From positions 94-64,093 of the forward strand of contig JAFEGB010000326.1 in assembly GCA_018240295.1 (NCBI GenBank): DNA of 64,000 nt, read 5' to 3'. The number at the start of each line of letters is the position of its first letter. Position 1 is the first letter of the stretch. Below the pieces are notes generated by a model that had not been told where the DNA came from, ran no database searches, and saw nothing but the letters and a program-made list of their open reading frames with translations. Below are positions 11,400 through 44,364 of this stretch, one piece after another. Source of the stretch: Pseudomonadota bacterium (GTDB lineage Bacteria > Pseudomonadota > Gammaproteobacteria > Competibacterales > Competibacteraceae). A program made the position numbers and the translations under genes.

Positions 11400-11469
11400 G
11401 GGGGCGGTCTCCGCTGCTGCGGCCCCGGAAGCGGGACCGTTGCACGGGAGACGCGCCGGGCCGGGTGGT

Positions 11470-12231: not shown

Positions 12232-12241
12232 GTGATCACAA
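12230..12241. promoter_or_regulatory. Second copy of the ATGTGATCACA palindrome (gntR/puuA divergent spacer)
   Basis: 11 of 12 identical to the 7522-7533 palindrome. Lies 38 nt upstream of the alternative GntR start and 69 nt upstream of the puuA ATG at 12310. Confidence 0.55.
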
Positions 12242-12309
12242 TCGGCCGGCAGTCTTCGCGAACACCCGAACGGCGTCAAGCGATGCCCCTGCCCCCGAGG
12301 AATCCTCCG

Positions 12310-18703: not shown

Positions 18704-19002
18704 GGGGAGGGTCCGTTCGGGCAGCGGCGGAGGCCCGGCATGCTCGTGCCGCCTGCGGGGAGCCGTCGCGTGACATGGTGTCGCAGGCGAGGCGTGCGCA
18801 GGCTTGCCGCGGGGTGGCCGATGCACAATCCGCGGTGCCGCAAAACCCTTGCACCGGCCGCTACTTGTCCGCAATCCGGCCGCATGGCTGCCGGCGATTG
18901 GTCCTTGCCGTCCGTCGCCTGCGACCGATGGTCGCAGGCGCTGCCGGCGGGCAGTGGGCGATGCCGACAATGGCGGTTCCCTCGTCTGCCGGAGTCGCGC
19001 CG

Positions 19003-19584
19003 ATGTCCCTGCCGAAGTCCTCGTCCCCTCGTAGCCTCCGTGCCGATCTCGCGCAGCGCCCGGCGAAATGGCGGTCGGCCTGCATGGCAGGCTGCGCGGC
19101 ATGGCTGATGTCCTTCGGTGCCTCGGCGCATGTGACGCTGGAGCGACTCGAAGCGCCGGCCGGCAGCCATTACAAGGCGGTGCTGCGCGTGCCGCACGGC
19201 TGCAGCGGCGCGGCAACCACCGGCGTGCGCGTGCGCATCCCGGACGGCGTGGTGTCGGTGAAGCCGCAGCCGAAACCGGGCTGGACGCTGGAGACCGAAC
19301 GCGGTCCGCTCGCCGAAGCCTACGAGAGCCACGGCCAGACCATCCGCGACGGCGTGCGCGAGGTACGCTGGCATGGCGGCGTCCTGCCCGATGAGCAGTT
19401 CGACGAATTCGCGATCCTGATGAAACTGCCGGCCGGGGCGGGACGCACGCTGGCGTTTGCGACCGTGCAGGATTGCATTGGCGGAGCCGTCGAACGCTGG
19501 ATCGGGTTGCCTGCTGCCGGCCAGTCCGCGCACGATCTGCCCCGGCCGGCGCCGCTGCTGCGCCTGACCGATCCCGTTCCCTGA
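19003..19584 (+). CDS. ycnI: YcnI-family (DUF1775) periplasmic copper-binding protein
   Basis: Track ORF 18775..19584(+) trimmed to the ATG at 19003 (GGAG 8 nt upstream); ATG 19084 is the alternative. The mature N-terminus HVTLE... followed by LRVPHGC is typical of YcnI. Confidence 0.8.
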   Translation: MSLPKSSSPRSLRADLAQRPAKWRSACMAGCAAWLMSFGASAHVTLERLEAPAGSHYKAVLRVPHGCSGAATTGVRVRIPDGVVSVKPQPKPGWTLETERGPLAEAYESHGQTIRDGVREVRWHGGVLPDEQFDEFAILMKLPAGAGRTLAFATVQDCIGGAVERWIGLPAAGQSAHDLPRPAPLLRLTDPVP

Positions 19585-19616
19585 CGGATGTTCCGTTTGC
19601 CTCCTGCCAGAAGCGC

Positions 19617-26670: not shown

Positions 26671-27107
26671 GAATGCACGTCAGTGGAAGCCGAAATGCAA
26701 ATGCAGCAAAGGTCGATGCCCATTTTTGTCCGGAAGCCGGTGTGTAAAATAATCTGACTGTCCCGCCTGGCGTAATGGATGTCCGGCATGCGCAATCGCG
26801 AATGCAATATCCGGGTGGCCGACGTGATGCTGGCGAATGTCCGGCAGCCGTCATTCCCGGCCGTGAATAACGGCGGGCCGGATTCGCCGCCACCGCAAGA
26901 GGCGGCGTGTCAGAAAATTGAACACCGCCGCCGGTGACCGGAACAGGAAAGCTTGCGGTTTGCAGATGGCCGCCGGCGGACCGCAGGGTCCATGGGGCCG
27001 GGCGCCGGGTCACCGGCGAGGGACGGCGGGCATGCGCCGGGCTGCGCCCGCACCGGCTTCGAACGCCGGCTGCTTGCGCAGCGCGGGATCGAAGCCGGCG
27101 GGCAGCG

Positions 27108-29906
27108 TCAGCGGGGCAGGGCGGTGAGCAGTTGCCGGGCTTCCCGGGCGCCGTCGAAGCCGGTGCCGGTCGCCAGCGCCTGTTCGAGCGGCCGGCGCGC
27201 TTCGGCCGGGCGGCCGAGGCGGTGCAGCGTATAGCCGAGGTGCCAGAGCAGTTCCGGGTTGAGCGGGTCGCGCGCCAGCGCCGCCTGCAACTGCTGCAGA
27301 CCCTCCGCCACCTGACCCTGCTGCACCAGAATCCAGCCCAGCGTATCGAGCACGGCCGGGTGACCGGGGGCGGCGGCCAGCGCGCGCCGGGCCGTGGCCA
27401 GCGCGCGGACATCGCGGGTGCGCAGGTACAGCAGCGCGAGGTTGTTGAGGATCATCGCGTCGCCGGGGCGGGCGGCGGCGAGGGCTTCGTACAGGCCGAG
27501 CGCCTTCTGCCACTCGCCGGCCTGCGGCCAGGCGATCGCCAGTGCCGCACGCGCGTCCGGATCGGCCGGATGCTGCCCTGCCCAGGCTTCGAGCGCCGGC
27601 AGGCCGCGGGCCGGCGCGCCGGCGGCGGCGTGGGCACGCCAGATCGCGACTGCATAGGCGCTGCGCGGATGGCGGGCATGGCCGGCCTCGTAGACGCCGG
27701 CCGCCTCGCCCGCCTGTCCGCGTGCCATCAGGATCTCGCCGAGCAGTCCCCAGGCATCGGCCGGCGGTTCGGGCTGCGCGAGCAGGGTGCGGGCCGTGGC
27801 TTCGGCCGCGGCCACCTGCCCGGCCGAGACCTGGGCTTCGGCCAGCGCCTTCAGCGTGTCCGGCTGTCCGGGGTCGATGCGCCGCGCGCGTTCGAGCGTG
27901 TCAACGGCATCCTGCGCCGCACCGGACAGCAGTTGGTGGCGGGCGGCGCGCAGCAGCCGCGGCAGGTTCTCGCCGGCGGCCTCGCCGAGCTGGCGGAAGC
28001 TCTGGCGGGCCGCCGCAGTCTGCTGCAGCGCGAGCTGGCTCATGCCGAGGGCGGCGAGCGCATCGAAACTGCCGGGGTCGATCGCGACCGCTTCGCTCGC
28101 GACCGTCTGGGCGAGCAGCGGCTCGCGGTGCTCCAGCCGGTAGCCGGCCAGGGCCAGGCGCGGCTCCAGCCGGCGCGGATCGAGCGTGCGCGCCTGTTCC
28201 CAGGCGCGCACGGCCTCGTCCGTGCGACCGATGCCGAGCAGCAGCCGGCCGAGATCGGTGCGCAGGCCGGCGTCGCGCGGATTGGCGCTGATCAGCTGTT
28301 CGAGGCGGCGGATGCCGTCGGCCGGGCGGCCCTCGACAGCGTCGAGCCGGGCGAGATTGACCGCGGCCATGAGCAGCCCCGGCGCGAGCTGCAACGCGCG
28401 TTCGAAGTCGGCCCGGGCCCCGGCGGTATCGCCGAGCGCGAGTCTTGCGCCGCCGCGCAGGTGCAGCACGACGGCATGATCCGGGGCGCGCACCGCGACG
28501 GCATCGAGCGTGCGCAGCGCCTCGGCCGGCCGGCCGGCGCCGAGCTGCAGGCTGGCGAGCAGCAGGCCGTCGCGGGCTTCGCCGGATTGCGCCCAGGCTG
28601 CGGACAGCGCGGCGAGTGCCGCATCGCCCTGACCGCTCTGCAGGCGGGCCTGGCCGAGCTGCGCGAACAGGGCCGGCTGCTGGCCGCCGAGTTCGATCAG
28701 CCGCTCCAGCAGCGCGGCCGCTGTCGCATGCTGTCCGAGCTGGGTATGGGCATCGGCGAGCAGGGTCAGCAGGCGTACGTCACTGACGGCATGCGGATCG
28801 TCCGGCAGCGGCTGCAGCAGTTCCAGCGCCTGGCGGGGATCGCCGAGGCGCAGCAGCACCGCGGCGAGCAGCCGGCGTGCAGTCTCGTCACCCGGCATGC
28901 GCTCCAGATACTGCGTCAGGTCGCCGCGGGCCTTTTCGGACAGGCCGAGCGCCTCGTGCACGGTGCCGGACAATTTCAGCAGCGAGGGCGAGCGCAGCAG
29001 CGTCTCGCGCGGGATGGCCTTCAGCAGCAGCGAGGCATCGGTCAGGCGTGCGCGTGCCGTTTCCGGGTCCTGGCGCGCGCGGGCCAGTTCGGCGGCGAGC
29101 AGCAGCGTGCGCACATCGGCCGGATTCTGCCGGCGCAGGCGATCGAGCACCGGCTGCGCCTCGTCGGCACGCCCGAGCGCGATCAGGGCGCTGACGCGCG
29201 CGGCGCGCGCCGGCAGGCAGAGTTCATCCAGTTTCAGGGCGGTGTCGGCGGCGGCGAGGGCCTCGGTGGCATGCCCGGCAGCGAGTTCGGCGGCGGCGAG
29301 CGCGGTCCAGGCTTCGGTCGAGCGCGGATCGAGGCCGGTGGCGCGCTGGGCGGCGCTGCGCGCGAGCGCGGCATCCTGCTGCTGCAGGGCCAGCATCGAC
29401 AGGCCGATGTCACCGTCCGGCGCCTGCGGTGCGGCCTCGCGGGCAGCGGTGAACGACAGGGCAGCCTCTTCCATCAGGCCGAGTTCGAGTCGCGCCTCAC
29501 CGCGCAGGCGCAGCATGCGCGCGCGCGCGGCGCCGGTATGGCGGTACGGATCGAAGCCGTCGAGGACGGCCTGGAACTCTCCCTGGCGCAGCTTCAGGTA
29601 CATGCGCAGCGGATCGATGTCGGCGCGCTCGGCTCCGAGGCGCAGCGCCCCCTGCAGGGTGCTTTCCGCGAGTTCGAACCGCCCCTGGCGCAGATAGGTG
29701 TGACCGAGCGCAACCTGGGCCGGAGCGAGGTCCGGGCGCTGCTGCAAGGCATTCTTCAGATGGATTTCGGCCCCGGCGTAATCGTTGCGGTCGAGGCTCT
29801 GCAGGCCGGCGTGCAGTTCTTCGGTGGCGGTGCCGGCGACGGCCGGCGGACCGCCCAAGGCGAAGACCAGCGCCAGCGCCAGCGGCTGGAGGCGGGAGCG
29901 GTTCAT
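27108..29906 (-). CDS. prsT: Large TPR-repeat protein, PrsT-like (PEP-CTERM system associated)
   Basis: Track ORF 27108..29939(-) trimmed to the ATG at 29906 (AGGAAA Shine-Dalgarno). Signal peptide MNRSRLQPLALALVFALGGPPAVAG. About 930 aa of consecutive TPR-like A/L/G-rich repeats. Flanked by PEP-CTERM genes. Confidence 0.7.
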   Translation of the reverse strand: MNRSRLQPLALALVFALGGPPAVAGTATEELHAGLQSLDRNDYAGAEIHLKNALQQRPDLAPAQVALGHTYLRQGRFELAESTLQGALRLGAERADIDPLRMYLKLRQGEFQAVLDGFDPYRHTGAARARMLRLRGEARLELGLMEEAALSFTAAREAAPQAPDGDIGLSMLALQQQDAALARSAAQRATGLDPRSTEAWTALAAAELAAGHATEALAAADTALKLDELCLPARAARVSALIALGRADEAQPVLDRLRRQNPADVRTLLLAAELARARQDPETARARLTDASLLLKAIPRETLLRSPSLLKLSGTVHEALGLSEKARGDLTQYLERMPGDETARRLLAAVLLRLGDPRQALELLQPLPDDPHAVSDVRLLTLLADAHTQLGQHATAAALLERLIELGGQQPALFAQLGQARLQSGQGDAALAALSAAWAQSGEARDGLLLASLQLGAGRPAEALRTLDAVAVRAPDHAVVLHLRGGARLALGDTAGARADFERALQLAPGLLMAAVNLARLDAVEGRPADGIRRLEQLISANPRDAGLRTDLGRLLLGIGRTDEAVRAWEQARTLDPRRLEPRLALAGYRLEHREPLLAQTVASEAVAIDPGSFDALAALGMSQLALQQTAAARQSFRQLGEAAGENLPRLLRAARHQLLSGAAQDAVDTLERARRIDPGQPDTLKALAEAQVSAGQVAAAEATARTLLAQPEPPADAWGLLGEILMARGQAGEAAGVYEAGHARHPRSAYAVAIWRAHAAAGAPARGLPALEAWAGQHPADPDARAALAIAWPQAGEWQKALGLYEALAAARPGDAMILNNLALLYLRTRDVRALATARRALAAAPGHPAVLDTLGWILVQQGQVAEGLQQLQAALARDPLNPELLWHLGYTLHRLGRPAEARRPLEQALATGTGFDGAREARQLLTALPR

Positions 29907-29996
29907 CGGCAGTTTCCTGGCACGGATGGCAGCGGACACCCCCTGGCCCGCAAGGCGGGCGAGGGGGGCGGGCAGCGACGGGGAGCGCGCAGGCGC

Positions 29997-31082
29997 TCAG
30001 CGACGCCGGCGGCGCATCAGCCAGGGCAGCGTCAGTCCGAGCAGCGCGAGGCTGGCCGGTTCCGGGACGGAGGTCACGCTGTTGGAGCTGGCGATGAAGA
30101 TCTGCTCGTAACCGTTGTTCAGGGCCGACATGCGGAAGTCGAACTGCATCACGTCGTAGAGACCATTGGCGATCGCGGTGTTGAGTTCGGGCGAATACAG
30201 CATGTAGGCGGCCTGGTTGGCGCCGAGGTTGTGGTTGAAGGTCTGGTCGGCATCGGGCACGCAGCCCGGGATCTGGTAGCCGAAGATGCTGCGGCAGGTG
30301 TCGGAACTCGGGATCGTGACCTGACCGCCGGAGAGGATGTAGTAGAAGTCGGTCGTGGTGATGCTGGCCGGAGCGGCGTTGAGGGCCGGGGTGTCCCCGG
30401 CGCCGTGCGTGTAGCCCAGCGTCTCGGCGCCGGTCAGCGAAGGATTGCCGCCGGCACCGCGGTTGTTGGTCAGGTCGAAGACCAGATCCGGCGCGACGCC
30501 GGCATCGTCCTTCAGCGTGAACTGACCCCAGGCCATCAGGTTCTGGTTGGTGGCCGCGCCGGAATTGACCTGGTTGTTGTTGAAGAAGAACAGCAGGTCA
30601 CCGCCGTTCAGGAAGCTGGTCAGCGCCGAGACGCGCGCATCCCAGGTGTTTTCGCCGTCACCGACGAACTCGGTGGTGTGATTCGCCGGATTGCCGTTGT
30701 CACCCGGGTCATCGACACCGCCCGGAGCCGAGGTCGTGGTCTGGAACTGGTCAACGCCGGTGTTGTTCGGCGTCTGGTAGGCATTGTCGACGCCGCTGTA
30801 ATTCGTATTGACCGGCTGGCCGTTCGCGCCGGTGCCGATGACGGTCAGATCGGAAATCTGTCCGGGGCCGGAGGCGATGTAGAACGGATTGCCGGGGCCG
30901 ACGCCACCTCCGAATTCGCGCGCATAACGATATGCGAGGATCGGCAGCGAGTACGAATAGAAGTCGCCGTACTGGAAGGCGTTGAACTGCGGGGTCGGCA
31001 GGAAGAAGGCGGCCTGGGTCGTCGGAACGCCGCCGATCAGACAGGCCGCTCCGATTGAGGCTGCCAGCATGCGCTGGTTCAT
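29997..31082 (-). CDS. PEP-CTERM-anchored secreted protein (exosortase substrate)
   Basis: Track ORF 29997..31091(-). The ATG at 31082 follows GAGGTGA; GTG 31091 is the alternative. Signal peptide MNQRMLAASIGAACLIGGVPTTQA. C-terminal VPEPASLALLGLTLPWLMRRRRR. Confidence 0.85.
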   Translation of the reverse strand: MNQRMLAASIGAACLIGGVPTTQAAFFLPTPQFNAFQYGDFYSYSLPILAYRYAREFGGGVGPGNPFYIASGPGQISDLTVIGTGANGQPVNTNYSGVDNAYQTPNNTGVDQFQTTTSAPGGVDDPGDNGNPANHTTEFVGDGENTWDARVSALTSFLNGGDLLFFFNNNQVNSGAATNQNLMAWGQFTLKDDAGVAPDLVFDLTNNRGAGGNPSLTGAETLGYTHGAGDTPALNAAPASITTTDFYYILSGGQVTIPSSDTCRSIFGYQIPGCVPDADQTFNHNLGANQAAYMLYSPELNTAIANGLYDVMQFDFRMSALNNGYEQIFIASSNSVTSVPEPASLALLGLTLPWLMRRRRR

Positions 31083-31231
31083 GTTGCTCACCTCATGTGC
31101 ATGGGTTTTGCGCAGATTTCTTATGTGCTGCGATACATGGCTTTCACCTCCGGTGTGTGAATCGGCTGGCCGGCCCTGACCTGGCGCACGCGGGTTCTCG
31201 TGCTGCGCCAGTGATCCCGAATGTTAAATAC

Positions 31232-31247
31232 AGCAAGTTATGTGCCG
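31232..31247 (-). promoter_or_regulatory. Candidate sigma-54 promoter (cGGCAC-N5-TTGCT) upstream of the second PEP-CTERM gene
   Basis: The minus strand reads CGGCACATAACTTGCT with canonical -24/-12 spacing, about 150 nt upstream of the ATG at 31082. Confidence 0.5.
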
Positions 31248-31411
31248 TAAGCTTGCTTACATGAAAAAACAATGGGTTTGGTCTGACCGGTGGGCAAATT
31301 CGGTCGCACATCTGATAAAAATCCTGACAGACCCCGGTCCACGACCACGGTCGGGGGCGGCGGCACCTTGCTTATACTGATCGGCCCCGAGCTGCCGACG
31401 TGCCGACCGCC

Positions 31412-32459: not shown

Positions 32460-33104
32460 TCAGGGATCGTCGGCGCTCGGCACCCAGCCGCCGAGATCCT
32501 TCCAGCGGTTGACGATGTTGCAGAAGAGTTCCGCCGTGCGCTCGGCGTCGTAGACGGCCGAGTGCGCCTCGCGCGCATCCCAGGCGATGCCGGCGGCCTG
32601 CGCGGCACGGGCGAGCACGGTCTGGCCGTAGGCGAGACCGGCGAGCGTCACGGTGTCGAAGGTCGAGAACGGGTGGAAGGGATTGCGCTTCACGTCGCAG
32701 CGCTCGGCCGCCGCGTTCAGGAAGCCGAGATCGAACGCGGGGTTGTGCGCGACCATGATCGCGCGCGTGCAGCCGGTCTCGCGCACCTCGCGGCGCACCT
32801 CGCGCAGCACGTTGCCGAGTGCTTCGGCCTCGGGCAGCGCCAGCCGGAACGGGTGGAAGGGGTCGATGCCGTTGACCTTCAGCGAGGCCGGATCGAGGTT
32901 GGCGCCCGCAAACGGCTCGACGTGATGCGCGATCGTGCGTGCCGGATACAGGCGGCCGTCGCTGCCGAGGCGCAGCAGCACCGCGGCGATTTCGAGCAGC
33001 GCATCGGTGCGGGCATTGAAGCCGCCGGTCTCGATATCGACGACGACGGGCAGAAAACCACGGAAGCGGAAGGCGATCGGGGACTTGCGGACGGAATCGT
33101 TCAT
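32460..33104 (-). CDS. rnt: Ribonuclease T
   Basis: C-terminal 214 codons of track ORF 32460..38183(-), from the ATG at 33104 ([30 protein letters not shown]). DEDDh exonuclease motifs (DIETGG, AHNPAFD, HSAVYDA). Confidence 0.9.
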
Positions 33105-33305
33105 GGCCCGAGCATACCCGAGGCGCCTGCGCTTGGGCATCGCGCCCGCCGCGGTGCGCCGCCGGTCACAAGGCGCTACAGTCGCGCCTGCCTTCCCGTC
33201 CCAGACCCCGCACCGAACGGAGTGTTGCCGATGCCGTACGCGTCCGCCGAACAGGATGTCCTGCCGCTGCGTCCGGCCGACGGCAGCGGCAGCGGGGCCT
33301 GAGCG

Positions 33306-36300
33306 ATGCTGCGCCGCCGCTTTTTCCGCAATCCCGTCTTCGCGAATCTGGCCCTGCTGCTCGCGCTGCTCGCCGGTGTGCTGTCCTGGTGGCAGATGCC
33401 GCGCGAGCAGACCGCACGACCGTCCGCGGCGGCCGTCGAGATCGTCACGGCCGCACCGGGACTCGCGACCGCCGAGATCGAGACCCGCGTCACCGCGGTG
33501 CTCGAAGCCGCGATCAAGCCGATCGCCGATCTCGACTTCATCGCCAGCACCAGCCGCGTCGGCGAATCGCGCCTGACCGTGCGCCTGCGGGCGGTCAGCG
33601 AGGCGACCTTCGAGCGCCGGCTGAACGAGCTGCGCTGGATCGTGCAGCACGTCGAGCGACAGCTGCCGTCGCTGGCCGGCCGTCCGGAGATCGCGAGCGT
33701 GCATGGCGCCGGCGTGCTGCCGAGCGCCGACGTGCTGGTGCTGGCCCGGGCCCCCGATGCGCCGGCGCCGTACGCGGCGGCCGAGCGGCTGGCGCAGTCC
33801 TTCGAGCGGCTGATGGATGTCGAGCGCGTCGAGCGCTACGGCACGCGCGCCACGCGCGTCGAGATCCGCTTCGATCCGGAGCGTGTCGCCCGTCACGGCC
33901 TGACGCCGGCGCGGCTGGCCGAACTGGTCGGGGCGCAGCTGCGCGAGCAGGCGGTCGGTCGCGTCGACTTCGACGAGCGGCCGATGCAGCTGCTGGTCGA
34001 AGGCGCCGACCTGCAGCCCGAGCGCCTCGCGCAGCTGCCGGTTCCGGGTGTCCGCGGCCTGCAGCCGCTCGCGGCGCTGGCCGACATCGAGCGCGGCCCC
34101 GAACCGGCGACGCGCGCGGTGCTGGCCGACGGCCGGCCGGCGGTGCTGCTGTCGGTGTACCGCAAGTCCGACGCCAACGCGCTCGACTTGTCGGCGGCAC
34201 TCGGCGAGCAGGCGGCGCGCTTCGCGGACAGCGATGCCGAGGCCGCCGCGATCGAGCTGCGCGTGCTCGATGCGCGCAGCACCGACACCCGTCGCGCGCT
34301 GCAGGCTTACGAGCGCGGCGCGCTGCCGGCGCTCGCCGCCGCGCTGCTGGTGTTCGCGATCGCCTTCGGCTGGCGCCTGGCGATGCTCGTCGCCTGCGTG
34401 GTGCCGGCGGCCGTCGGTCTGGCGCTGGCGCCGTGGGGATTCTCGGGCGGCGTGCTGACGCCGGTGATGCTGACTGGCGTGCTCGCCGGTTTCGTGCTGC
34501 TGATCGATGCGGCAGTCGCAGTCGGCGAGCGCCTGCAGCACCGGCTGCTGCGCGGTGCCGCGGCGCTCGATGCCGCCTACGGTGCCTGGCGCGAGGCCGG
34601 ACTGCCGCTGATGGTCGCGACGCTGGTGTTCCTGCTGGCGATGCTGCTGCCGATGTGGCTGCCGGAAGGCAGCGGGCCGGCCGGCGCGCTGGCGGCGCGG
34701 GTCATGACCGGCATGCTGGTCGCCGGCATCGCCTACGCGGTGCTGCTGCTGCCCTCGCACGCGGTGGTCACGCGCATCCGCCTGCCGCGCCGCCATCCGG
34801 TGCAGGCCCGGCGCGAATGGCTGGCCTGGCGGCTGCGCCACGCCTACCGGCGGCTGCTGAACTGGACGCTGCGCCGGCCGCTGGTGCCGGGGCTGGTGCT
34901 GGTGCTGCTGCTGCTCGGCGCGCTGGTCGCCCTCGGCAGCGGCCGCGTCGGCGTCGAGTTCGCCGAACGCGGGCAGCTGCGCTCCTTCTACGTGAACCTC
35001 GAACTGTCGCCGGGTGCGAAGCTGGAGGACACCCTCGCCGCCGGGCGTGAGGTCGAGCGCATCGTGCGCGAGCAGCTGCCGGCCGATGCGCTGGCCGAGG
35101 TCGTGATCAGCGCCGGCCTGCGCCGCAGCGAGCGCGAACTGCTGACCGGCGAGCGCCACGGTCAGGTGCTGGTCGGCCTGCGCAGCGGCGACCGCATCCG
35201 CGACGCGCTGACCGTCGAGCAGGGGATCACGCGCGTCAAGCCGCGACTCGCCTTCGTCGGCGGCGTCGACAACCTGAGCGTGCAGGCCGTCGACGACGGC
35301 CGGCCGGTGGCGCGGCCGCTCAGCGTCACCGTGCGCGGCGATGATCCGGCCGAGGTGCGCCGCGCTGCCGACCGCGTCGTCGACATCCTGCGCAGCCTGA
35401 TCGGCGTCACCGATGTGGTCGACGACGAGGATCAGGCCGAGGCCGCGGAGCTGCGCCTGGTGCTGAAACCGGGCGCGCTGCTGCGCGCCGGGCTGTCGGC
35501 GCCGCAGCTGCTGCGCGAGCTGCGCCTGCTCGGCGAGGGCGAGACCATCGCGCAGCTGCGCGAGCAGGGCCGCAACGTCGACGTGCTGCTGCGCGGCAAG
35601 GCTGCGCCCGAACCGTTCTTCGACATCGAGGAATTCCTGGCGCGGCCGGTGCGCCTGCCCGATGGCCGCAGCGCCCCGCTCGGCGAGTTCGCCAGCGCCG
35701 AGCCGGCCAGCGGCCGCAGCGTCGTGCGCCACCAGAACCTGCGCCGTGCGATCAGCATCGAGGCCGACGTCGATCAGGCGCGCGTCAACACCTTCGCGCT
35801 GAACCGCGTGGTCGTCGCCGAATGGGAGCGCACGGCCGCTGCCGGTCTGCCCGGCGTCGAGCTGGTCATCGGCGGCGCCTTCGGCAGCGTCGCCGGTCAC
35901 CTCGGTGCGCTGGTCAGCCTGTTCGCGCTCGGCAGCGGACTCGGTTATCTGGTGCTCGCGACGCGCGCGCACAGCTACCGCCAGCCGCTGGTGATCTTCG
36001 CGGCCGTGCCGTTCGCGGCGCTGGCCTTCGTCGTCGGGCTGGCCGTCAGCGGCCAGCCGGTCGGTCCGTACACCGGCTTTGCCGGCACGGCGCTGCTCGG
36101 CCTGTCGGTGCAGTCGACGCTGCTGCTGGTGTCGGCCGTGCAGCGGCTGCTGCCGATCGAGGGCTCGGTCGCCAGAGCCGTGGCGCTCGCCGCGGCCGAC
36201 CGGGCGCTGCCGGTGCTGGTCTCGGCCCTGGCAAGCGTCGCCGGCCTCGCGGTATTCGCGCTCGGCGTGCCGGTGGCGGCCCCGGCGTGGATGGCGCTCG

Positions 36301-38162
36301 CCGGGGCGCTGATCGGCGGCATTCCGGTCATCGCGCTGTGCGTGCTGCTGGTGCTGCCGGCGATCTGCCTGTACGTGCTGCGCGCGCCGGTGTCGGCGGT
36401 CACGGCGATCAACGTCGTCGACGCCGAACCGGGCGGCGGCGGCTGGCGCGAGCGCATGCGCCGCGGCCGGCGGCATGCGGCGATCGTCGCGCTGAACGAA
36501 TCCGAGCTGAACAGCGCCGAGCCCGAGCTGCGCGCCCGCCACGAGGCCGGTCTCGACGCGCTGAAGGTCGGCGAGTGGCTGCAGGCGCTGCGCCTGTTCG
36601 AGGACGCCGCCAAGCGTCACCCCGAGGCCGTGCAGCTGCAGTTCGGCGCCACGCAGGCGCTGCTGCAGTACCTGTTCGAGAACGAATGGGACGAGGGCTA
36701 TCACGCCCGTGCCGGCCGGCATCTGGCGCGCGCGCGCCAGCTCGCTTCCGGCGATCCGCGCCTGCGTCCGCTGGAACGGGCGCTGGCCGAACTCGAAGCC
36801 CGGCATGTGCCGGTGGCCGGGGAGGGCACAAGCAGCCAGCCCAGGGTCGGCATGCTGCGGCTGTCGGGCACGGTCGGCCGGCCGTGGCGGCCGGCGAGCG
36901 TGGCGCGCGGGCAGCGGGCGCCCGATCGCGGCACCGACCTGCCGGCCGGCCTGCATGATCTGGCGCTGGCGCTGCGCAACCTCGTGCGCCAGCGCAAGCG
37001 CACGGCCGCCGCGCTCGGCGCGATCGGCTTCGGCGCCGTGGCGCTGATCCTCGCCGGCGGCTTCATCGAATGGGTGCTGTGGGCGACGCGCGAATCGGCC
37101 GTCTACGGGCAGCTCGGCCATGTGCAGGTCGTGCGCCAGGATTTCTTCGTGCGCGGCACGGCCGATCCGCGCGGCTTCCTGATTCCGGGCGATGCGCCGC
37201 CGGCCGGCCTGCGCGAGCTGCCGCACGTGCGCGCCGTGACGCCGCGGCTGAGCTTCAGCGGTCTGGCGAGCACCGGCGAGACCACGGTGCCGTACCTCGG
37301 TCAGGGCGTGGTGCCCGAGGACGAGGCGCCGATCAGCATCGATTACCGCATCGTCAGCGGCAAGGGCCTGACCACCAGCGACGCGCGCGAGGTCATCGTC
37401 GGCACCGGACTCGCGGCGACGCTCGGCGTCAAGCCCGGCCAGAAGCTGATCCTGATGAGCAACTCCGGCAGCGGCGCGTTCACGCCGGTCGAGCTGAAGG
37501 TGCGCGGGCTGTTCTCGACCTCGAACAAGGCGCTGAACGATGTCGCCCTGCGCGTGCCGCTGAAGACCGCACAGGACCTGCTGCAGGTCGATGGCGTGCA
37601 CATCTGGGTGGTGCTGCTCGATCGCACCGAATCGACGGCCGCCGTGCTGCCGCAGCTGCGCGCCCTGCTGCCGGCTGGCCTGCAGGCGGTGCCGTGGTCG
37701 GACCTCGCCGACTTCTACAACAAGACCAGCGAGCTGTTCCAGCGCCAGATGTTCGTGCTGCGGCTGATGATCGCGGTGATCATCCTGCTCAGCATCTCGA
37801 ACTCGCTGATGATGAACGTCATGGAGCGCACCGGCGAGATCGGCACGCTGTGCGCGCTCGGCACGCGCCGGCGCTCGATCCTGAAGATCTTCAGCCTCGA
37901 AGCCCTCGCGCTCGGCCTGCTCGGCGCGGCGACCGGAACGGCGCTCGGCGTGACCATCGCCTCGGTGGCCTCGGCGGTCGGCATCCCGATGCCGCCGGCC
38001 CCGGGCATGGACAAGGGCTTCGTCGCCGAGATCCTGGTCACGCCGGCGCTGGCGGGCTCGACCTTCGGGCTGGCCGTCATCGCGACCTTCGTCTCCGGCC
38101 TGTATCCGGCCTGGAAGGCCTCGCGGCTCGTCATCGTCGACGCGCTGCGGCACAACCGCTGA
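33306..38162 (+). CDS. Fusion protein: AcrB-type RND permease (about aa 1-1022) + about 190-aa helical linker + MacB/LolC-type FtsX ABC permease (about aa 1215-1618)
   Basis: Single uninterrupted 1618-codon ORF. The N-terminus [24 protein letters not shown] and a 12-TM two-lobe layout are typical of the AcrB family. The C-terminal module starts [31 protein letters not shown] (FtsX TM1). It continues with a ~230-aa periplasmic domain and then three TMs with [20 protein letters not shown] and [11 protein letters not shown] at third codon positions is maintained through the linker. Confidence 0.75.
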
Positions 38163-38175
38163 AGCGGAGCGCGCC

Positions 38176-39387
38176 ATGCTCAAGTTCGCCTACCGCAACC
38201 TGACCCGCCACCGCGGCCGCACGCTGCTGACGCTCGGGGCGATCGCCTTCGGGGTCGTGAGCCTGGTGCTGTCGGCCGGCTTCGTCGACGACATCTTCGT
38301 GCGCCTGCGCGAGAACACCGTGCAGAGCGGCCTCGGCCACCTGCAGGTCGCGCGCGAGCACTACTTCGACCTGCGCAACCGCCAGCCCTATGCCTACATG
38401 ATCGAAAACCCCGGAGCCGTCGTCGCCGCCGCGAAGAAGCTGCCGACGGTGCGCGAGGCGATGATGCGCGTGAACCTCACCGGCACGCTCAGCAACGGCA
38501 GCGGCGAGCTGCCGGTGGTCGCCGAGGGCGGCGAGCCGGAAAAGGAGGTGGCGGTCGGCGGCTTCGTGACGCTGGTCGACGGCCGGCGCCTCACCGGCGG
38601 CGATCAGAACGTCGTCGAGCTCGGCGAGGGGCTGGCGCGGGCGCTCGGCGTTGCGCCGGGGGCGTTCGTGACGCTGCTGACCGCCACGCCCGAGGGCGCG
38701 ATCAACACCGTCGAGCTGAAGGTGGTCGGCATCTTCCGCAGCGTGTCGATCGACTACGACGCGCGTGCCGCACGCCTGCCGCTCGCGACGGCGCAGACGC
38801 TGCTGAACACGAAGTCCGTGCATACCGTCGTTGTCGCGCTCGAGAACACCGCCTTCACGCAGACCGCCGCCGGGCAGCTGCGCAAGGCCCTCGATGGCCA
38901 GCCGCTCGCCGTGTACACCTGGGACGAACTCGCCGATTTCTACCGCAAGGCGGTGGATCTGTACCGCACGCAGTTCGGCGTGCTGCAGGCGATCATCCTG
39001 ATCATGGTGGCGCTGTCGGTGTCGAACAGCATCAACATCTCGATCTTCGAGCGCACGGCCGAGGTCGGCACGCTGCTCGCGCTCGGCAACCGCCGCCGGC
39101 AGGTGCTGCAGTTGCTGGTGATGGAGAGCGCGATCTCGGGACTGGTCGGGGGGCTGGCCGGCGCGGCGCTCGGCATCGGGCTGGCGCTCGGCATCAGCTC
39201 GATCGGCATTCCGATGCCACCGCCACCGAACTCCAGCCAGGGCTATCTCGCGGTCGTGCGCATCGTGCCGGAGCAGGTGGCGGTGGCGCTGGTCATCGGC
39301 GTCGTTGCGACCGTGCTGGCCTCGGTGCTGCCGGCGTGGCGGGTGTCGCGGCTGCCGGTCGTCGAAGCGCTGCGCCGGGCGCAATGA
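38176..39387 (+). CDS. MacB/LolE-type FtsX-family ABC transporter permease
   Basis: 403 aa, 13 nt after the fusion ORF, with a GGAG Shine-Dalgarno. [32 protein letters not shown] (TM1), a periplasmic domain, and three C-terminal TMs with [19 protein letters not shown] and LPAWRVSRL. Paralogous to the C-terminal module of the fusion. Confidence 0.9.
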
Positions 39388-39422: not shown

Positions 39423-40202
39423 TCAGTCGATGCCCTGCGTGACGCGCGTCAGGTAGTCCGGGTGGAACAGCTTGTTCGGCAGCTCGCGCGGCTTCATCGC
39501 GGAGTAATCGAGCACGGAGCGGTCACCGCGCTTGACCGCATCCTCCATGACCAGCTGGGTCGGACGCACGGTGTTGTCGAGCTTTGCGTAGTTCAGGTAC
39601 TGGGCGGTCTTCAGCAGCCGGCCGGACAGCGCGTAGAACTCGGCCTTCAGCGGCTGGTTGCCGCTGCGCTCGACCCACAGCAGCACGCGGTTGTAGGTGA
39701 CGCTGCCGTCGATGGCGGTCAGCTCCAGCACTGCGTACTTGCGCTTCTGGATGGTCTCGTCGCGCAGCACGCGGGCGTTGTAGTCGCCCGAGAAGTTCGC
39801 GCGTGCCAGATCGCCGTTGGCGACCTGGCCGGTCAGGCGCTGCGACAGCGGCAGGCGCACCGGCTGCGACAGGCGCGGCGAGTACACCCACAGGTCGCGC
39901 CCGCGCATCAGCAGCACCTGGCCGCGCTCCGAGGCCGGGGCGGTAGTGATGACGAGGGTGTTTTCGTTACCCTTCGACAGGATCTGGTAATCGCGGACCT
40001 CGGTTTCGCCTCCGGGCGTGGTCGAGCTGATCCGCACGTTCACCTCGAAGTCGCTGCGCGGAAACCGGACCTGATCGGCGGCCTCCAGCATCGCGAGGGC
40101 TTCGAGGTCCACTTCCTGTGCCCGCGCCGCCGGCATCGCCAGGGTGGCGGCGCACAGCAGCAGCAGGGAAGGCAGACGCAGTACGGTCGCACGCATCGGC
40201 AT
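39423..40202 (-). CDS. Periplasmic LolA-like outer-membrane lipoprotein-sorting family protein
   Basis: Track ORF 39423..40307(-) trimmed to ATG 40202 (or 40196). Signal peptide MPMRATVLRLPSLLLLCAATLAMPAARA|QE with no canonical lipobox. The body resembles LolA-like/DUF4367-type half-barrels (DFEVNVRISS, LLMRGRDLWVYSP, GDLARANFSGDY, YNRVLLWVE). Confidence 0.7.
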   Translation of the reverse strand: MPMRATVLRLPSLLLLCAATLAMPAARAQEVDLEALAMLEAADQVRFPRSDFEVNVRISSTTPGGETEVRDYQILSKGNENTLVITTAPASERGQVLLMRGRDLWVYSPRLSQPVRLPLSQRLTGQVANGDLARANFSGDYNARVLRDETIQKRKYAVLELTAIDGSVTYNRVLLWVERSGNQPLKAEFYALSGRLLKTAQYLNYAKLDNTVRPTQLVMEDAVKRGDRSVLDYSAMKPRELPNKLFHPDYLTRVTQGID

Positions 40203-40290: not shown

Positions 40291-40977
40291 ATGAGCATAG
40301 TACGCATCGAAAACGTCTCGAAACGCTACCGCCTCGGCGAGCAGGACGTGACGGCGCTGCACGGCGTCAGCCTGCGCGTCGAGCCGGGCGAGTTCGTGGC
40401 GCTGGCCGGACCCTCCGGCAGCGGCAAGACGACGCTGCTGAACATGATCGGCTGCATCGACACGCCGAGTTCCGGGCGCGTCATCGTCGATGGCCATGAC
40501 GTGACCGGCCGCGATCCGGACCAGCTCGCCGAACTGCGCGCCCGCACGCTCGGCTTCATCTTCCAGACCTTCAACCTGCTGCCGGTGCTGTCGGCCGAGG
40601 AAAACGTCGAGTACCCGCTGATCAACATCCAGCACATCCCCCGGGCCGAGCGCCGCCAGCGCGTCGCGTACTTCCTCGACATGGTCGGACTCGCGCGGTT
40701 CGCACGCCATCGCCCGAACCAGCTTTCGGGCGGCCAGCGCCAGCGCGTCGCGATCGCCCGGGCGCTGGCGACCAAGCCGAAGATCGTGCTTGCCGACGAG
40801 CCGACCGCGAACCTCGATCACCAGAGCGGCGACGGTATCCTGCAGCTGATGAAGCACATCAACGAGCAGTCCGGCACCACCTTCATCTTTTCGACGCACG
40901 ACGCCCGCGTGATGGCGATGGCCAGCCGGCTCGTGCGCATCAGTGACGGCGCCATCGTCGGCGAGGAGACCCGATGA
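40291..40977 (+). CDS. ABC transporter ATP-binding protein (LolD/MacB type)
   Basis: Track ORF 40144..40977(+) trimmed to the ATG at 40291 (MSIVRIENVSKRY). Walker A GPSGSGKTT, Q-loop FQTFNLLP, signature LSGGQRQR, Walker B IVLADEPT, H-loop STHD. Confidence 0.95.
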   Translation: MSIVRIENVSKRYRLGEQDVTALHGVSLRVEPGEFVALAGPSGSGKTTLLNMIGCIDTPSSGRVIVDGHDVTGRDPDQLAELRARTLGFIFQTFNLLPVLSAEENVEYPLINIQHIPRAERRQRVAYFLDMVGLARFARHRPNQLSGGQRQRVAIARALATKPKIVLADEPTANLDHQSGDGILQLMKHINEQSGTTFIFSTHDARVMAMASRLVRISDGAIVGEETR

Positions 40978-42275
40978 CGAACCATCCGAACCGGTCCGGC
41001 CGCATCGCCCTGGGCATCGCACTGCTGGCGGTCACGCCGGCGGCTGCCGCGCAGCAGGACGTGAAGCTCAGCGGCTACCTGTCGAACGAGACCGCGTACA
41101 CCTTCGGCGGCGAGAATCACTGGTCGAAGTCCCGCAACACGCTGAACCTGGCCGCCACCGGCAGCTTCAGCGAGTCGATCTCGTGGAAGGCGAGCGGCTG
41201 GCTGCGCTGGGACCCGGTTGTCCAGCACTCGGATTTCTATCCGGACAAGGTGCAGGACGACCGCGGTTTCGAGGGGCTGGTGCGCGAGACCTTCCTCGAT
41301 GTGAGCCTCGGGGACTGGGACCTGCGCCTCGGGCGCCAGAACATCGTCTGGGGCGAGATGGTCGGCCTGTTCTTCGCCGACGTGGTTTCGGCGCGCGACA
41401 TGCGCGAGTTCGTGCTCGCCGACTTCGAGCAGCTGCGCATCCCGCAGTGGGCGGCGCGCGCCGAGTACTTCAAGGACGACTTCCACGCCGAGCTCGTGTG
41501 GATCCCGTACCTGACCTACGACAACATCGGCGAGCCCGGCGACGACTTCTACCCGTATCCGCCGGCCTTCCCGGGGCTTGGCTACCGCATCCTCGATGAA
41601 AAGAAACCGCGCGGCGGTGACAGCGACGATGCCGCCGGCGTGCGCCTCGGCTGGATCGTCGATGGCTGGGACATCAACGGTTACTACTACCGCAGCACCG
41701 ACGTGCAGCCGGCCTTCCAGCGCAGCTTCGGCCTGGTCGGCGGCGTGCCGACGCTGACCTACACGCCGACGCACAACCGCATCCAGCAGTGGGGCCTGAC
41801 CGTCGGCAAGGACATCGGCGACGGGCTGGTGTTCAAGGCCGAGGCGATCTACACGATGGGCCGGCGCTACGACGTGCTGCGCCTGAGCGATGCCGACGGT
41901 CTGGTGCGCAAGGACACGCTCGATTACGTGCTCGGTCTCGACTGGACGCCGGACGCCAGCAACCGCCTGAACCTGCAGTTCTTCCAGCGCTTCTATCAGG
42001 ACCACGACCCGGACATGGTGCCGGAGAGCGTCGAGAGCGGTGTCAGCCTGTTCTATTCGACCAAGGTCTGGGGCGACCGGCTGGAGCCGGAAATCACCTT
42101 GATCGAGAGCCTCAACCGCGGCGACTGGCTGCTGCGGCCGCGGCTGACCTGGAACGTCAGCGCCGACCTGAAGGCCAGCTTCGGCGCCGACATCCTGAAC
42201 GGCCCGCCGGATGCGCTGTTCGGCCGCTTCACCAACGGCGACCGCGTCTACGCCGAGGTCCGCTACGACTTCTGA
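40974..42275 (+). CDS. DUF1302-family predicted outer-membrane beta-barrel protein
   Basis: 433 aa. Its ATG overlaps the ATPase stop (ATGA). Signal peptide ...AVTPAAAA|QQ. DUF1302-like N-terminal region (KLSGYLSNETAYTF, DLRLGRQNIVWGE, LRIPQWAARAEYF). Ends ...YAEVRYDF, a terminal Phe typical of OMPs. Confidence 0.75.
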   Translation: MTNHPNRSGRIALGIALLAVTPAAAAQQDVKLSGYLSNETAYTFGGENHWSKSRNTLNLAATGSFSESISWKASGWLRWDPVVQHSDFYPDKVQDDRGFEGLVRETFLDVSLGDWDLRLGRQNIVWGEMVGLFFADVVSARDMREFVLADFEQLRIPQWAARAEYFKDDFHAELVWIPYLTYDNIGEPGDDFYPYPPAFPGLGYRILDEKKPRGGDSDDAAGVRLGWIVDGWDINGYYYRSTDVQPAFQRSFGLVGGVPTLTYTPTHNRIQQWGLTVGKDIGDGLVFKAEAIYTMGRRYDVLRLSDADGLVRKDTLDYVLGLDWTPDASNRLNLQFFQRFYQDHDPDMVPESVESGVSLFYSTKVWGDRLEPEITLIESLNRGDWLLRPRLTWNVSADLKASFGADILNGPPDALFGRFTNGDRVYAEVRYDF

Positions 42276-44296
42276 GGGCTGGCGTCCGGGCTGCCGCCGC
42301 CGGTCATCAGCCGCGCGAGCGGCAGGCGCGTCGAGCGCGATACCGGCACCGGGCCGTAGCCGAGGCGGCCGAAGTACACGGCGCGCGCTGCGGTGTCGGC
42401 CCCGACCAGCGCATCGAGCTGGCGGGCGAGCGTGCGGGCGTTGTCGATTGAAGCCTGCTTTTTCGTGAACTCGATGCCGTCACGGATGTAGCCGGAGAAG
42501 ATCAGCGGCGTCATCTCCGGCTGGAACTGCAGGCCGAGGCGGGTCGCGGTCAGCCAGAAGCGCTGCATTGCGGCGCCGGCGGCGAGATAGTCGGCGAGCG
42601 TCTGCGGTGCCTGTTCGGCAATGATCAGGAAATGTGCGGCGCAGCCGAGCGCCGGTGCGAAGTCGAGCTGCAGCCGCGGCAGCCAGGTGCCGGCGAACCA
42701 GCGGTTCAGGAAGTCGACGCGCTCCCAGCTCTTCATCGCCCAGCGCATCAGCGCGAGCCCGACCGGATCGAGCCCGACCGCGGCCCCGGGCAGCCGGTCC
42801 TCGCTGTACTGCACGCCGAACTCGATGATGTCGCGGTGCGTCGGGTAGGCCTCGGGCGTCGTCAGCCGGATGTGGGCGTTGCGAAACAGCAGCTTCGCGA
42901 CATCGAGGCGCTGATCCCCTTCCAGCCAGCGCAGCGAGTAACCGGGACCGAGCGCCTGCAGGAAGGCCGCCTTCACGGCGTCCGTGAGCGGCCGGCGCGA
43001 CAGCGGCCGGCGCTGCGTGCAGCGTGCGCGGATCGCGGTTTCCAGCGGATGGCGCACGGCCGCCGCTGCCGGCGTGAACTGCAGGCGGAACATCGGCGCA
43101 AACGCCGGCGTCGTGTCCCCGACCCCGGGCAGCGTTTCGATGTCGAGCGCAAGCCCCGCGCCCGGGGCGGCGATGCGCGCGGTTTCCAGCAGCGCACCGA
43201 GAGCGAGCTGGCTCGGCCGGCCGCGCAGGTCGTAGATCACGTGATCGCGCGTGTCGCAGCCGTGCACGATCACGGTCAGCGGGTCGACGGCCTCGAAGCG
43301 CCACGGCTGGGTGTTGTCGCCGCTCGGGGCCCAGCTCGCCAGTTCGAGCACGCGTGCGACGCGCGGGTCCAGCCCGGCCGGTGCCGCAGGCGCGGCACGC
43401 GCCGGGGCCGGCAGGCTGCGGGCGCGGCGCAGCAGCGTGCGCATGATCGCCAGCGTCAGGCGGTTCAGCGGGTGGCGGTTGCCGCCCGGGCGCCAGGTGC
43501 GCGACAGCCGGTTGCGGTAGGCATCGAAGTGCAGGCCCCACGGCGCGGCGCGCACCGGGCCGCGGCCGAGCAGCAGCTTCAGCGATTCGGTCACGAGCAC
43601 GCCGGCGGCGAGTTCGCAGGCCATCGGCGTCGACGGTCCGCGCTTCTCGACGAAGTTGATCGCCGAGCGATCGACCAGATAGCCCTGCTGCAGCATCGTC
43701 GGCGACAGCCCGACCAGGAAGCGCGCGTACTGTTCCTCCTCGGGTTGGCCCTCGACCTGGAAGTAGTCCTCGAAGCTCATGCGCCCGGGCAGGAAGGTCA
43801 GCACCGCCGTGCCCATGCCGAGCGGCGCGGCCGTGATCGCCGGGATGCCGCGGGCGTGGGCGGCTGCGAACACCTTGCGCCGCACCGGCAGCACGAAGAA
43901 ATCCAGCGCATCGACGTACAGGTCGACGCCGTCGAAGAAGGCATCGAGGTTGTCGTCGGTGACGCCGTCCGCAAAGCGCCGGATATCGAGTTCCGGATTG
44001 ATCGCGAGGGCGGCCTCGGCCATCACGTCGAGCTTCGGCCGATCGAGCGTCGCCATCGTCGCGCCGGCCTGACGGTTGAAGTTGTGCAGCTCGAAGCGGT
44101 CGAAGTCGGCGAGGTGGAAGGCGCCGACGCCGAGCCGCGCCAGCGTCAGCAGATGCACGCCGCCGACGCCGCCGAGTCCGGCGACAGCCAGCCGCCGGCC
44201 GCGCAGCCAGGCCTGCTCGGTCGGTGTCAGCCAGCCGATGTTGCGGCTGAAGGCAGTGGCGTAATCGAAGGACTGCGAGACGTGCTGCGGGGACAT
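42263..44296 (-). CDS. ThiF/E1-like adenylyltransferase fused to a nitroreductase-like domain (Rv1355c/MoeY-type architecture)
   Basis: Track ORF 42263..44317(-) trimmed to the ATG at 44296 (AAGGAGA Shine-Dalgarno). N-terminal Rossmann motif VAGLGGVGGV and FDRFELHNFNRQ (ThiF/MoeB-like). The C-terminal half contains ASWAPSGDNTQPWRF (nitroreductase fold). No CxxC zinc motifs and no rhodanese domain. Confidence 0.8.
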   Translation of the reverse strand: MSPQHVSQSFDYATAFSRNIGWLTPTEQAWLRGRRLAVAGLGGVGGVHLLTLARLGVGAFHLADFDRFELHNFNRQAGATMATLDRPKLDVMAEAALAINPELDIRRFADGVTDDNLDAFFDGVDLYVDALDFFVLPVRRKVFAAAHARGIPAITAAPLGMGTAVLTFLPGRMSFEDYFQVEGQPEEEQYARFLVGLSPTMLQQGYLVDRSAINFVEKRGPSTPMACELAAGVLVTESLKLLLGRGPVRAAPWGLHFDAYRNRLSRTWRPGGNRHPLNRLTLAIMRTLLRRARSLPAPARAAPAAPAGLDPRVARVLELASWAPSGDNTQPWRFEAVDPLTVIVHGCDTRDHVIYDLRGRPSQLALGALLETARIAAPGAGLALDIETLPGVGDTTPAFAPMFRLQFTPAAAAVRHPLETAIRARCTQRRPLSRRPLTDAVKAAFLQALGPGYSLRWLEGDQRLDVAKLLFRNAHIRLTTPEAYPTHRDIIEFGVQYSEDRLPGAAVGLDPVGLALMRWAMKSWERVDFLNRWFAGTWLPRLQLDFAPALGCAAHFLIIAEQAPQTLADYLAAGAAMQRFWLTATRLGLQFQPEMTPLIFSGYIRDGIEFTKKQASIDNARTLARQLDALVGADTAARAVYFGRLGYGPVPVSRSTRLPLARLMTGGGSPDASPQKS

Positions 44297-44364
44297 CGGC
44301 TCTCCTTGCGGCGGCACGGGGGTGGCCGCCGGCGGTGTCCGGGCGGGGGGAAGGCCCTGCAGGC

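Follow-up and report, generated by a model that had tools for sequence, protein, structure and literature searches.

An AcrB-type RND permease fused to a LolC/E-like FtsX permease in Plasticicumulans and other Competibacteraceae

Contig JAFEGB010000326.1 of a Competibacteraceae genome (GenBank assembly GCA_018240295.1), of which a stretch of 64,000 nucleotides was analysed here (the window), carries a gene that joins a resistance-nodulation-division (RND) permease of the AcrB type, in one open reading frame (ORF), to an FtsX-type permease of an ATP-binding cassette (ABC) transporter, which we call FtsX1. An arginine-rich spacer, a helical tail and a joint lie between the two, and the genes that follow encode a second permease (FtsX2), a LolA-like periplasmic protein, an ABC ATPase, an outer-membrane barrel and a ThiF-type enzyme (Table 1). 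We show here that the ORF encodes one inner-membrane polypeptide with 16 transmembrane (TM) segments and is a genuine gene fusion.

Table 1. Coordinates of the fusion gene, its modules and the neighbouring genes in the window
Feature	Coordinates	Strand	Remarks
Fusion gene (RND, spacer, tail, joint, FtsX1)	33306..38162	+	1618 codons + stop; Pfam, NCBIfam
RND module, residues 1-1025	33306..36380	+	predicted AcrB-type fold, 12 TM segments, degraded proton relay
Arg-rich cytoplasmic spacer, residues ~1026-1070	36381..36515	+	predicted disordered
TPR-like helical tail, residues ~1071-1168	36516..36809	+	C-terminal domain of RND subfamily
Joint, residues ~1169-1215	36810..36950	+	predicted disordered, fast-evolving, LRLxxTVxRPWRxPA motif
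FtsX1 module, residues 1216-1618	36951..38162	+	LolC/E-like type VII ABC permease, 4 TM, periplasmic domain
FtsX2, 403 aa, MacB_PCD + FtsX	38176..39387	+	starts 13 nt after fusion stop
LolA_like (PF17131) periplasmic protein	39423..40202	-	PF17131 E 3e-46; Sec signal peptide, no lipobox
ABC ATPase, 228 aa, LolD/DevA/MacB-NBD-like (NBD, nucleotide-binding domain)	40291..40977	+	ABC_tran E 1e-35
DUF1302/porin-like outer-membrane beta-barrel	40974..42275	+	DUF1302 E 4.5e-11, Porin_4, signal peptide
ThiF adenylyltransferase + nitroreductase-like domain	42263..44317	-	ThiF, Nitroreductase; PRK08223 444 bits
PrsT, XrtA/PEP-CTERM TPR-repeat protein, context marker outside the operon	27108..29939	-	TIGR02917 484 bits, cutoff 312

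Inspection of the frame in the window verified its start at the ATG at 33306 and its stop at 38160-38162, as given in a preliminary description made from the sequence. That description had read the first ~1022 codons as a complete AcrB-family protein and codons ~1215-1618 as a complete FtsX-type permease, and a Pfam scan of the 1618-residue protein supports both modules: ACR_tran spans residues 6-1021 (E 5e-84) and FtsX residues 1487-1608 (E 6e-17), while the NCBIfam lolCE model aligns to residues 1302-1616. By hydropathy the TM segments of the RND module end at about residue 1024 and are followed by a soluble stretch of 193 residues and then by the four TM segments of FtsX1, an arrangement of 12 + 4 segments around a soluble linker, and the fusion is topologically permissible, as had been argued. 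The third-position G/C bias said to run through the junction was likewise found, the GC content at third codon positions (GC3) in the fusion frame being 0.78-0.97 in every 120-nt segment across it. Taken by itself, the open frame in the window is weak evidence, since the DNA is ~73% GC, the antisense of the fusion gene holds a 1907-codon shadow ORF (32460-38183, minus strand), and the 193-codon linker stays free of stops in 10% of dinucleotide shuffles at window GC. The case for the fusion is thus carried by comparative data and not by the single-window open frame.

Five or more diverged Plasticicumulans/Competibacteraceae lineages, two cultured type strains among them, have the uninterrupted fused architecture (fused orthologues at loci L001, L002, L003, L005, L006, L007 and L033). 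A search of 5.8 billion proteins returned P0002 (1619 aa, 80% identity) and P0003 (1623 aa, 52% identity), each with both Pfam domains, and one more fused relative, P0126 (1602 aa), came from a profile search among 1.84 billion representatives; overall identity to the full-length fused relatives is 80%, 52% and about 45%. A scan of one genome per species found an unbroken fusion ORF in Plasticicumulans acidivorans DSM 23606 (L005) and in P. lactativorans DSM 25287 (L006). In L007, a contig of a Competibacteraceae metagenome-assembled genome (MAG), the frame is open from TM12 of the RND module via the tail, joint and FtsX1 to the stop. The 90% cluster of the window protein has 57 members, and at least four of them are proteins of 1618-1619 aa from separate MAG assemblies, which assigns the window to a species of Plasticicumulans (Gammaproteobacteria, Candidatus Competibacteraceae). 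The junctions of the lineages differ by substitutions and whole-codon indels only. To the question, raised in the preliminary description, whether orthologues are fused or split, the answer within Plasticicumulans/Competibacteraceae is that they are fused, with neither a stop nor a frameshift at the junction. Compared with the 80% relative (L002), the ratio of nonsynonymous to synonymous substitution rates (dN/dS) is 0.31 for the RND module, 0.20 for the spacer, 0.34 for the tail, 0.81 for the joint and 0.36 for FtsX1. In the four lineages compared, the in-frame start codons of the joint are not positionally conserved and none of them follows a Shine-Dalgarno sequence, so that separate initiation of FtsX1 is unlikely.

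Public annotation leaves a gap here. In RefSeq the fused proteins go only by the names "efflux RND transporter permease subunit" or "AcrB", and the P. lactativorans locus (cluster of P0126) has two incompatible models there, WP_132538311.1 (1603 aa, fused) versus WP_243662527.1 (416 aa, FtsX only). No description of an RND-FtsX fusion was found in the literature searched, in agreement with the preliminary description, which knew of none; a look for literature on TP0789, LolA-like proteins and FtsX found nothing, and the matches to Geobacter literature were irrelevant to the fusion. A homologue search with the P. lactativorans-type protein returned only itself, its reach being limited by a word-based prefilter. 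Within the reach of the homologue searches, one word-prefiltered and the other started from a tail-specific profile, the fusion is restricted to Plasticicumulans/Competibacteraceae, and independent RND-FtsX fusions may exist elsewhere. Another unusual class of RND fusion was seen in the metagenome proteins P0006, P0008, P0016 and P0028 (1439-1593 aa), which combine ACR_tran with the outer-membrane-factor domain PF02321; P0016 is named 'AcrB/TolC' by JGI. P0012 (2298 aa), in which helicase and transcription-repair-type domains accompany an RND, looks like a merged gene call.

The linker is a real translated link, as the preliminary description had proposed, yet it is not a plain connector, being mostly the RND subfamily's own TPR-like C-terminal tail. 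A profile built on residues 1046-1200 matched 33 proteins; all long matches consist of the C-terminal part of an RND protein, then the tail domain, then the stop, and in this search the domain was found only at the C-terminal ends of RND proteins. The linker of the window protein matched no Pfam family above threshold, and the unfused relatives that carry the tail gave weak TPR matches in Pfam. In AlphaFold2 (AF2) models, tail residues ~1071-1168 form a bundle of 5-6 helices at a predicted local distance difference test score (pLDDT) of 83-95, with the spacer (residues 1028-1070) below 50 and the joint (~1168-1213) also below 50 and predicted to be disordered. From the profile matches and the models together, the order is read as RND module, its own TPR-like cytoplasmic tail, a joint of ~45 residues and the conserved N-terminal helix of FtsX1. 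The joint motif listed in Table 1 (residues ~1180-1198, window 36840-36900) is conserved in L002, L001 and L005 and could be a docking or processing site.

The FtsX half is most similar to the permeases of the lipoprotein transporter LolCDE. Its model (pLDDT >90) is closest to LolE/LolC in LolCDE (Foldseek E 3e-24, TM-score 0.67) and then to MacB, and by sequence LolC is its best solved relative (phmmer 9e-16). Of the label MacB/LolC-type, used in the preliminary description, the kinship to LolC/E thus stands and MacB comes only behind. Like other type VII permeases, FtsX1 ends in an FtsX domain and has four TM segments, the first two of which are separated by a large periplasmic domain, and a cognate ABC ATPase, conserved in all the loci, is encoded nearby. 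Against the lolCE equivalog (NCBIfam TIGR02212, cutoff 362), FtsX1 scores 101.6 bits and FtsX2 103.1 bits; since both lie far below the cutoff, the genes would encode a paralogous LolCDE-like system and not the housekeeping Lol machinery. The stand-alone downstream permease had been called a paralogue, and indeed FtsX2 is 40% identical over 401 residues to residues ~1219-1617 of the fused protein. It has its own Shine-Dalgarno sequence (GGAG, 9 nt upstream of the start), is itself conserved in all related loci, and is the presumed heterodimer partner of FtsX1. The LolA-like protein has the signal sequence MRATVLRLPSLLLLCAATLAMPAARA/QE and is 53-73% identical in relatives. The ATPase starts at MSIVRIENV, matches the LolD model at 4.5e-65 and DevA at about E 4e-65, and is 67-96% identical in relatives, with the DUF1302-like barrel at 45-63%.

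The RND half keeps the AcrB fold in its model, with a degraded proton relay. The AF2 model matches AcrD, OqxB and AcrB with TM-scores of 0.84-0.86 over ~1070 columns, from which the fold is predicted to be complete, and ACR_tran homology and the 12-TM architecture with two large loops agree with membership of the family. Against the NCBIfam RND models the module reaches 230 bits versus a cutoff of 1250. Relay residues were compared in an alignment with 17 other RND proteins (Table 2), at the established relay positions in AcrB numbering, D407/D408 in TM4, K940/N941 in TM10 and R971/T978 in TM11; the argument rests on alignment to this numbering. AcrB D408, K940/N941 and T978 are gone from all four full-length fused lineages, so that the fused proteins lack most of the relay network typical of AcrB-type pumps, and P. 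lactativorans has no TM4 aspartate at either 407 or 408.

Table 2. Residues at relay positions (AcrB numbering) in typical pumps, unfused RND-tail pumps and the four full-length fused proteins
Position	Typical pumps	Unfused RND-tail	Fused
TM4 D407-D408	D-D	D-D	D-A, D-A, D-A, G-A
TM10 K940-N941	K-N, N-N or L-N	N-D	Q-S, Q-S, H-G, H-A
TM11 T978	T	T	S, S, L, G
TM11 R971	R	R	R in 4/4
TM4 position 414	acidic	acidic	acidic in 4/4

Across the same four sequences, 18-24% of positions in the TM4 and TM10 regions are invariant, which does not exceed the level in the remainder of the RND module, whose best-conserved stretch is periplasmic (residues 701-750, 48% invariant); FtsX1 is 42-94% invariant. Neither is a partner for a tripartite pump encoded alongside: the operon holds no cognate gene for a membrane fusion protein (MFP), tblastn with the MFPs of L034 and L035 gave no match in the window, L002, L005 or L006, no outer-membrane-factor (OMF) genes lie near the fusion, and the gene upstream of it is a divergent RNase_T. 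Because the relay residues are lost, an MFP gene is absent nearby and the TM core is not preferentially conserved, the RND half is probably not an autonomous proton-driven pump. Judged from these sequence comparisons, it is kept by selection, though probably not as a canonical proton-driven tripartite pump. The claim that two transport engines are coupled here thus holds for the fusion into one polypeptide and is not supported for the proton-motive engine, given the lost D408, K940/N941 and T978 and the lack of an MFP gene nearby.

Both halves exist unfused elsewhere. When all operon proteins were mapped by tblastn onto 25 related loci, three architectures emerged. The fused one occurs only in Plasticicumulans/Competibacteraceae and has an invariant order: the fusion, FtsX2, the divergent LolA-like gene, the LolD-like ATPase, the DUF1302/porin-like barrel and the convergent ThiF-nitroreductase gene. 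The RND-less one, found in Dechloromonas, Azonexus, Rhodocyclaceae and other Betaproteobacteria, has FtsX1 (50% identity), FtsX2, the LolA-like protein, the ATPase and the barrel, with ThiF nearby and no RND within 10 kb; in Dechloromonas the ABC pair adjoins a PepA-like PEP-CTERM protein and genes for Wza, Wzz and a tyrosine kinase. The same ABC set stands between the PrsT/R/K genes and wza in the published table of the psc1 exopolysaccharide locus of Rubrivivax gelatinosus (PMC3684757). The third architecture is an unfused RND-tail pump, ~33% identical to the RND module. Its gene directly follows one for an MFP and has as neighbours a ThiF-nitroreductase gene (53% identical to that of the window), PrsT, the exosortase-associated TIGR03694 acyltransferase, an AMP-ligase and a patatin. 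By this comparison, the RND half derives from an AcrB-fold RND subfamily with a cytoplasmic TPR-like tail, and both unfused forms, as their neighbours indicate, reside in XrtA/PEP-CTERM polysaccharide loci. In the window PrsT lies 3.4 kb upstream of the fusion, and relatives lie near PrsT, TIGR03694, PepA-like and Wza/Wzz genes. This context hints at a link to the exosortase system, which is however weak in the fused lineage itself. Haft 2006 makes no mention of an ABC, ThiF or RND association. Two minus-strand genes downstream, of 1156 and 941 aa, were considered as a second RND-tail gene and rejected, as they encode a PAS histidine kinase and RapA.

Several further features of these loci are worth noting. 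The ThiF gene is the only gene found beside all three architectures (L008 12480-13385; L035 1691-3679; L010, L011, L014, L015), fused to the nitroreductase domain in some loci, the window included; its product may be an enzyme that makes or modifies the cargo. Genes for lipid handling also recur around all three; beside the RND-less ABC set and the unfused RND-tail genes (L013 3811-8467 and 12810-21692; L034 4531-5646; L030 3029-5301) they include those for an acyl-AMP ligase, a fatty-acyl-reductase-like protein, Tle1-like and patatin-like lipases and a hexapeptide acyltransferase, which hints at an acylated or lipid cargo. About one third of the FtsX1 orthologues outside Competibacteraceae are 540-570 aa long and carry an N-terminal zinc-ribbon, PF13717/PF13719 (P0173, P0174, P0178, P0184, P0191 and others; an example gene is L013 9617-11158). 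With a zinc-ribbon there and an RND here, the N-terminus of FtsX1 seems to accept cytoplasmic add-ons repeatedly.

Comparison with known systems places the locus between several of them. It resembles Escherichia coli LolCDE (LolC, LolE and LolD with LolA) in having two paralogous four-TM FtsX permeases, a separate LolD-like ATPase and a LolA-fold periplasmic partner encoded alongside, and LolCDE is the best match of FtsX1 in structure and sequence. In contrast to LolCDE, the carrier is a PF17131 LolA_like protein and not LolA, a DUF1302-like barrel replaces LolB, one permease bears an entire RND pump at its N-terminus, and the lolCE score is 102 against the cutoff of 362. With RND pumps of the hydrophobe/amphiphile efflux (HAE) type such as AcrB, AcrD, OqxB and MexK, the RND module shares the full-length ACR_tran domain, the 12 TM segments and the fold, but it departs from them in its missing relay residues, in having no MFP or OMF gene nearby, in its TPR-like tail and in the covalently attached ABC permease. 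The unfused RND-tail pumps of XrtA/PEP-CTERM loci (L035, L034, L030) have the tail domain, the ~33% RND identity and the ThiF-nitroreductase neighbour in common with it; unlike the fused proteins they end right behind the tail, keep the TM4 D-D pair and T978 and have an MFP gene directly upstream. The RND-less set (Dechloromonas, Azonexus and Accumulibacter relatives; Rubrivivax RGS1_10387-10392) provides orthologues of FtsX1, FtsX2, the ATPase, the LolA-like protein and the barrel at 45-70% identity, yet its FtsX1 begins at the RNL helix or has the N-terminal zinc-ribbon. MacAB-TolC shares the type VII ABC fold and the logic of mechanotransmission, and MacB is the second-best structural match; however, MacB has a fused NBD, forms a homodimer and needs MacA and TolC, none of which applies here. 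A barrel, a LolA-superfamily carrier and an inner-membrane engine have been described together in the DUF1302/DUF1329/BNR/RND (COG1033) module and in AmeABCD of Castellaniella (bioRxiv 10.1101/072470, PMC6394551). With their DUF1302 barrel and LolA-superfamily periplasmic protein, these, of which the former came to light through fitness data, offer a precedent for the layout, although their engine is a stand-alone RND of the MMPL/HpnN type and their carrier DUF1329, with no ABC transporter and no fusion. The parts are thus of known kinds, and the covalent RND-FtsX architecture, for which the literature searched held no description, belongs to one small clade within the reach of the searches.

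We favour a reading, at a probability of roughly 0.6, in which the RND module has been demoted to a part carried by a LolCDE-like ATP machine, the whole having arisen by fusion of an RND-tail pump with the ABC set. By homology, FtsX1, FtsX2 and two copies of the LolD-like ATPase would assemble, and ATP-driven periplasmic mechanotransmission would extract from the outer face of the inner membrane a cargo that is lipid-like or anchored in the membrane. The LolA-like protein in the periplasm would receive this cargo and pass it on to the DUF1302-like barrel in the outer membrane, and the PEP-CTERM context suggests that the cargo may be part of exosortase-dependent matrix biogenesis. The disordered joint of ~45 residues would tether the RND tail to the cytoplasmic N-terminal helix of FtsX1. 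After the fusion, the RND module would have been left without an MFP partner and with little of the canonical proton relay while purifying selection persisted, and it would act as an accessory that captures or positions cargo, or as a scaffold, subordinate to the ATP engine. Several points weigh against this picture. Three of the four full-length fused lineages still have D407, and all four have R971 and the acidic residue 414, so that a non-canonical proton path is conceivable. The unfused RND-tail subfamily already departs from AcrB at TM10 (N-D, not K-N). No exosortase was found in the 64-kb window, where PrsT is the only PEP-CTERM marker, and PrsT is absent from the fetched flanks of both type strains. 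The geometry of assembly is also puzzling: AcrB-type RNDs are homotrimeric, and a complex of the LolCDE type holds one copy of each permease. In an extension that we regard as unlikely, the RND would be powered by ATP: the cycle of the LolD-like ATPase would move its TM bundle or porter domains via the tether of tail and joint, and the RND trimer might gather three ABC units into a super-complex. If true, this would be the first known RND driven by ATP and not by the proton-motive force, and it would tie the two main periplasm-facing export mechanisms directly to each other in nature.

Both halves could still be active motors, with proton-motive RND transport and ATP-driven mechanotransmission in one polypeptide; the complete AcrB fold under purifying selection and the retained R971, acidic 414 and D407 would suit such a dual-energy machine. 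We nevertheless doubt it, because every fused lineage has lost D408, K940/N941 and T978 where the nearest unfused relatives keep D-D and T978, P. lactativorans has no aspartate at 407/408, the TM core is not preferentially conserved and no MFP gene accompanies the fusion. Loss of the relay residues could instead mean that the RND is a decaying, functionless remnant at the N-terminus of a working FtsX permease, and within the operon it is indeed conserved least (42-47% identity versus 69-73% for FtsX1), with a dN against P. acidivorans of 0.51 compared with 0.22 for FtsX1. But ~1025 codons have collected neither stops nor frameshifts in five lineages, the dN/dS of the RND equals that of FtsX1 at short distance, the AF2 fold is confident and complete, and the periplasmic patch at 701-750 is conserved; a relic therefore seems quite improbable, more so than the dual-energy machine.

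The remaining alternatives concern the joint. One ORF might yield two proteins if FtsX1 were freed by internal initiation or proteolysis there, which would agree with a joint that is predicted to be disordered and evolves nearly neutrally, with the alternative 416-aa FtsX-only model of RefSeq, and with a conserved RPWR-containing motif that could serve as a processing site. Such a split is improbable in our view: FtsX2 has a clear GGAG, whereas in four lineages the joint offers neither a positionally conserved start nor one with a Shine-Dalgarno sequence; the long product is obligatory because there is no stop codon; and frame and continuity have been maintained across ~50% divergence. Least credible of all is an artefact, in which an assembly error, a frameshift or a missed stop merged two genes of a high-GC metagenome contig. 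Chance openness of the linker in shuffled sequence, and the long shadow ORFs common at window GC, would allow for it, yet two isolate genomes, several MAGs of independent origin and assemblies from Logan carry the same fusion, at 45-100% identity, and the linker shows conservation at the protein level, its indels being whole codons. Given its presence in isolates and independent assemblies, we consider an artefact excluded, and the LolCDE-like machine with a demoted RND module remains the reading that we prefer.

Elsewhere in the window, a 1374-codon ORF at 26934-31058 (plus strand) overlaps PrsT, has no family match and is a high-GC shadow ORF. Between PrsT and pyrD, a 364-aa ORF (29997-31091, minus strand) matches nothing in Pfam or NCBIfam and is unusually poor in GC at first codon positions (GC1, 0.58); local GC falls to 0.54 at 31050-31349, just past this ORF. 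At 11008-13686 (plus strand) an 892-aa protein resembles GlnA/gamma-glutamylputrescine synthetase over residues ~453-889, with ~450 unassigned N-terminal residues, and its neighbours, a PuuC-like aldehyde dehydrogenase, a PuuD-like hydrolase and an aminotransferase, suggest a putrescine-utilisation cluster. A 1058-aa TonB-dependent receptor (16658-19837, minus strand) is longer by ~430 residues at its N-terminus, and at its side a CopC-CopD fusion protein is encoded at 19473-21248 (plus strand); as the two ORFs overlap by ~360 nt, one start is probably wrong.

Substrates at the outer face of the inner membrane are handled mainly by two kinds of machine, RND pumps and type VII ABC transporters, which count as distinct families, each with its own source of energy; a conserved natural fusion shows that joint assembly is possible. 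The protein described here, which keeps the AcrB fold under selection while shedding the canonical relay, is a natural test case, and its relatives in the cultured strains P. acidivorans, a species studied for polyhydroxyalkanoate production, and P. lactativorans make it experimentally accessible. The fusion suggests that the RND-tail pump and the ABC/LolA-like/DUF1302-like/ThiF system, which both recur in exosortase/exopolysaccharide loci, are linked in function.

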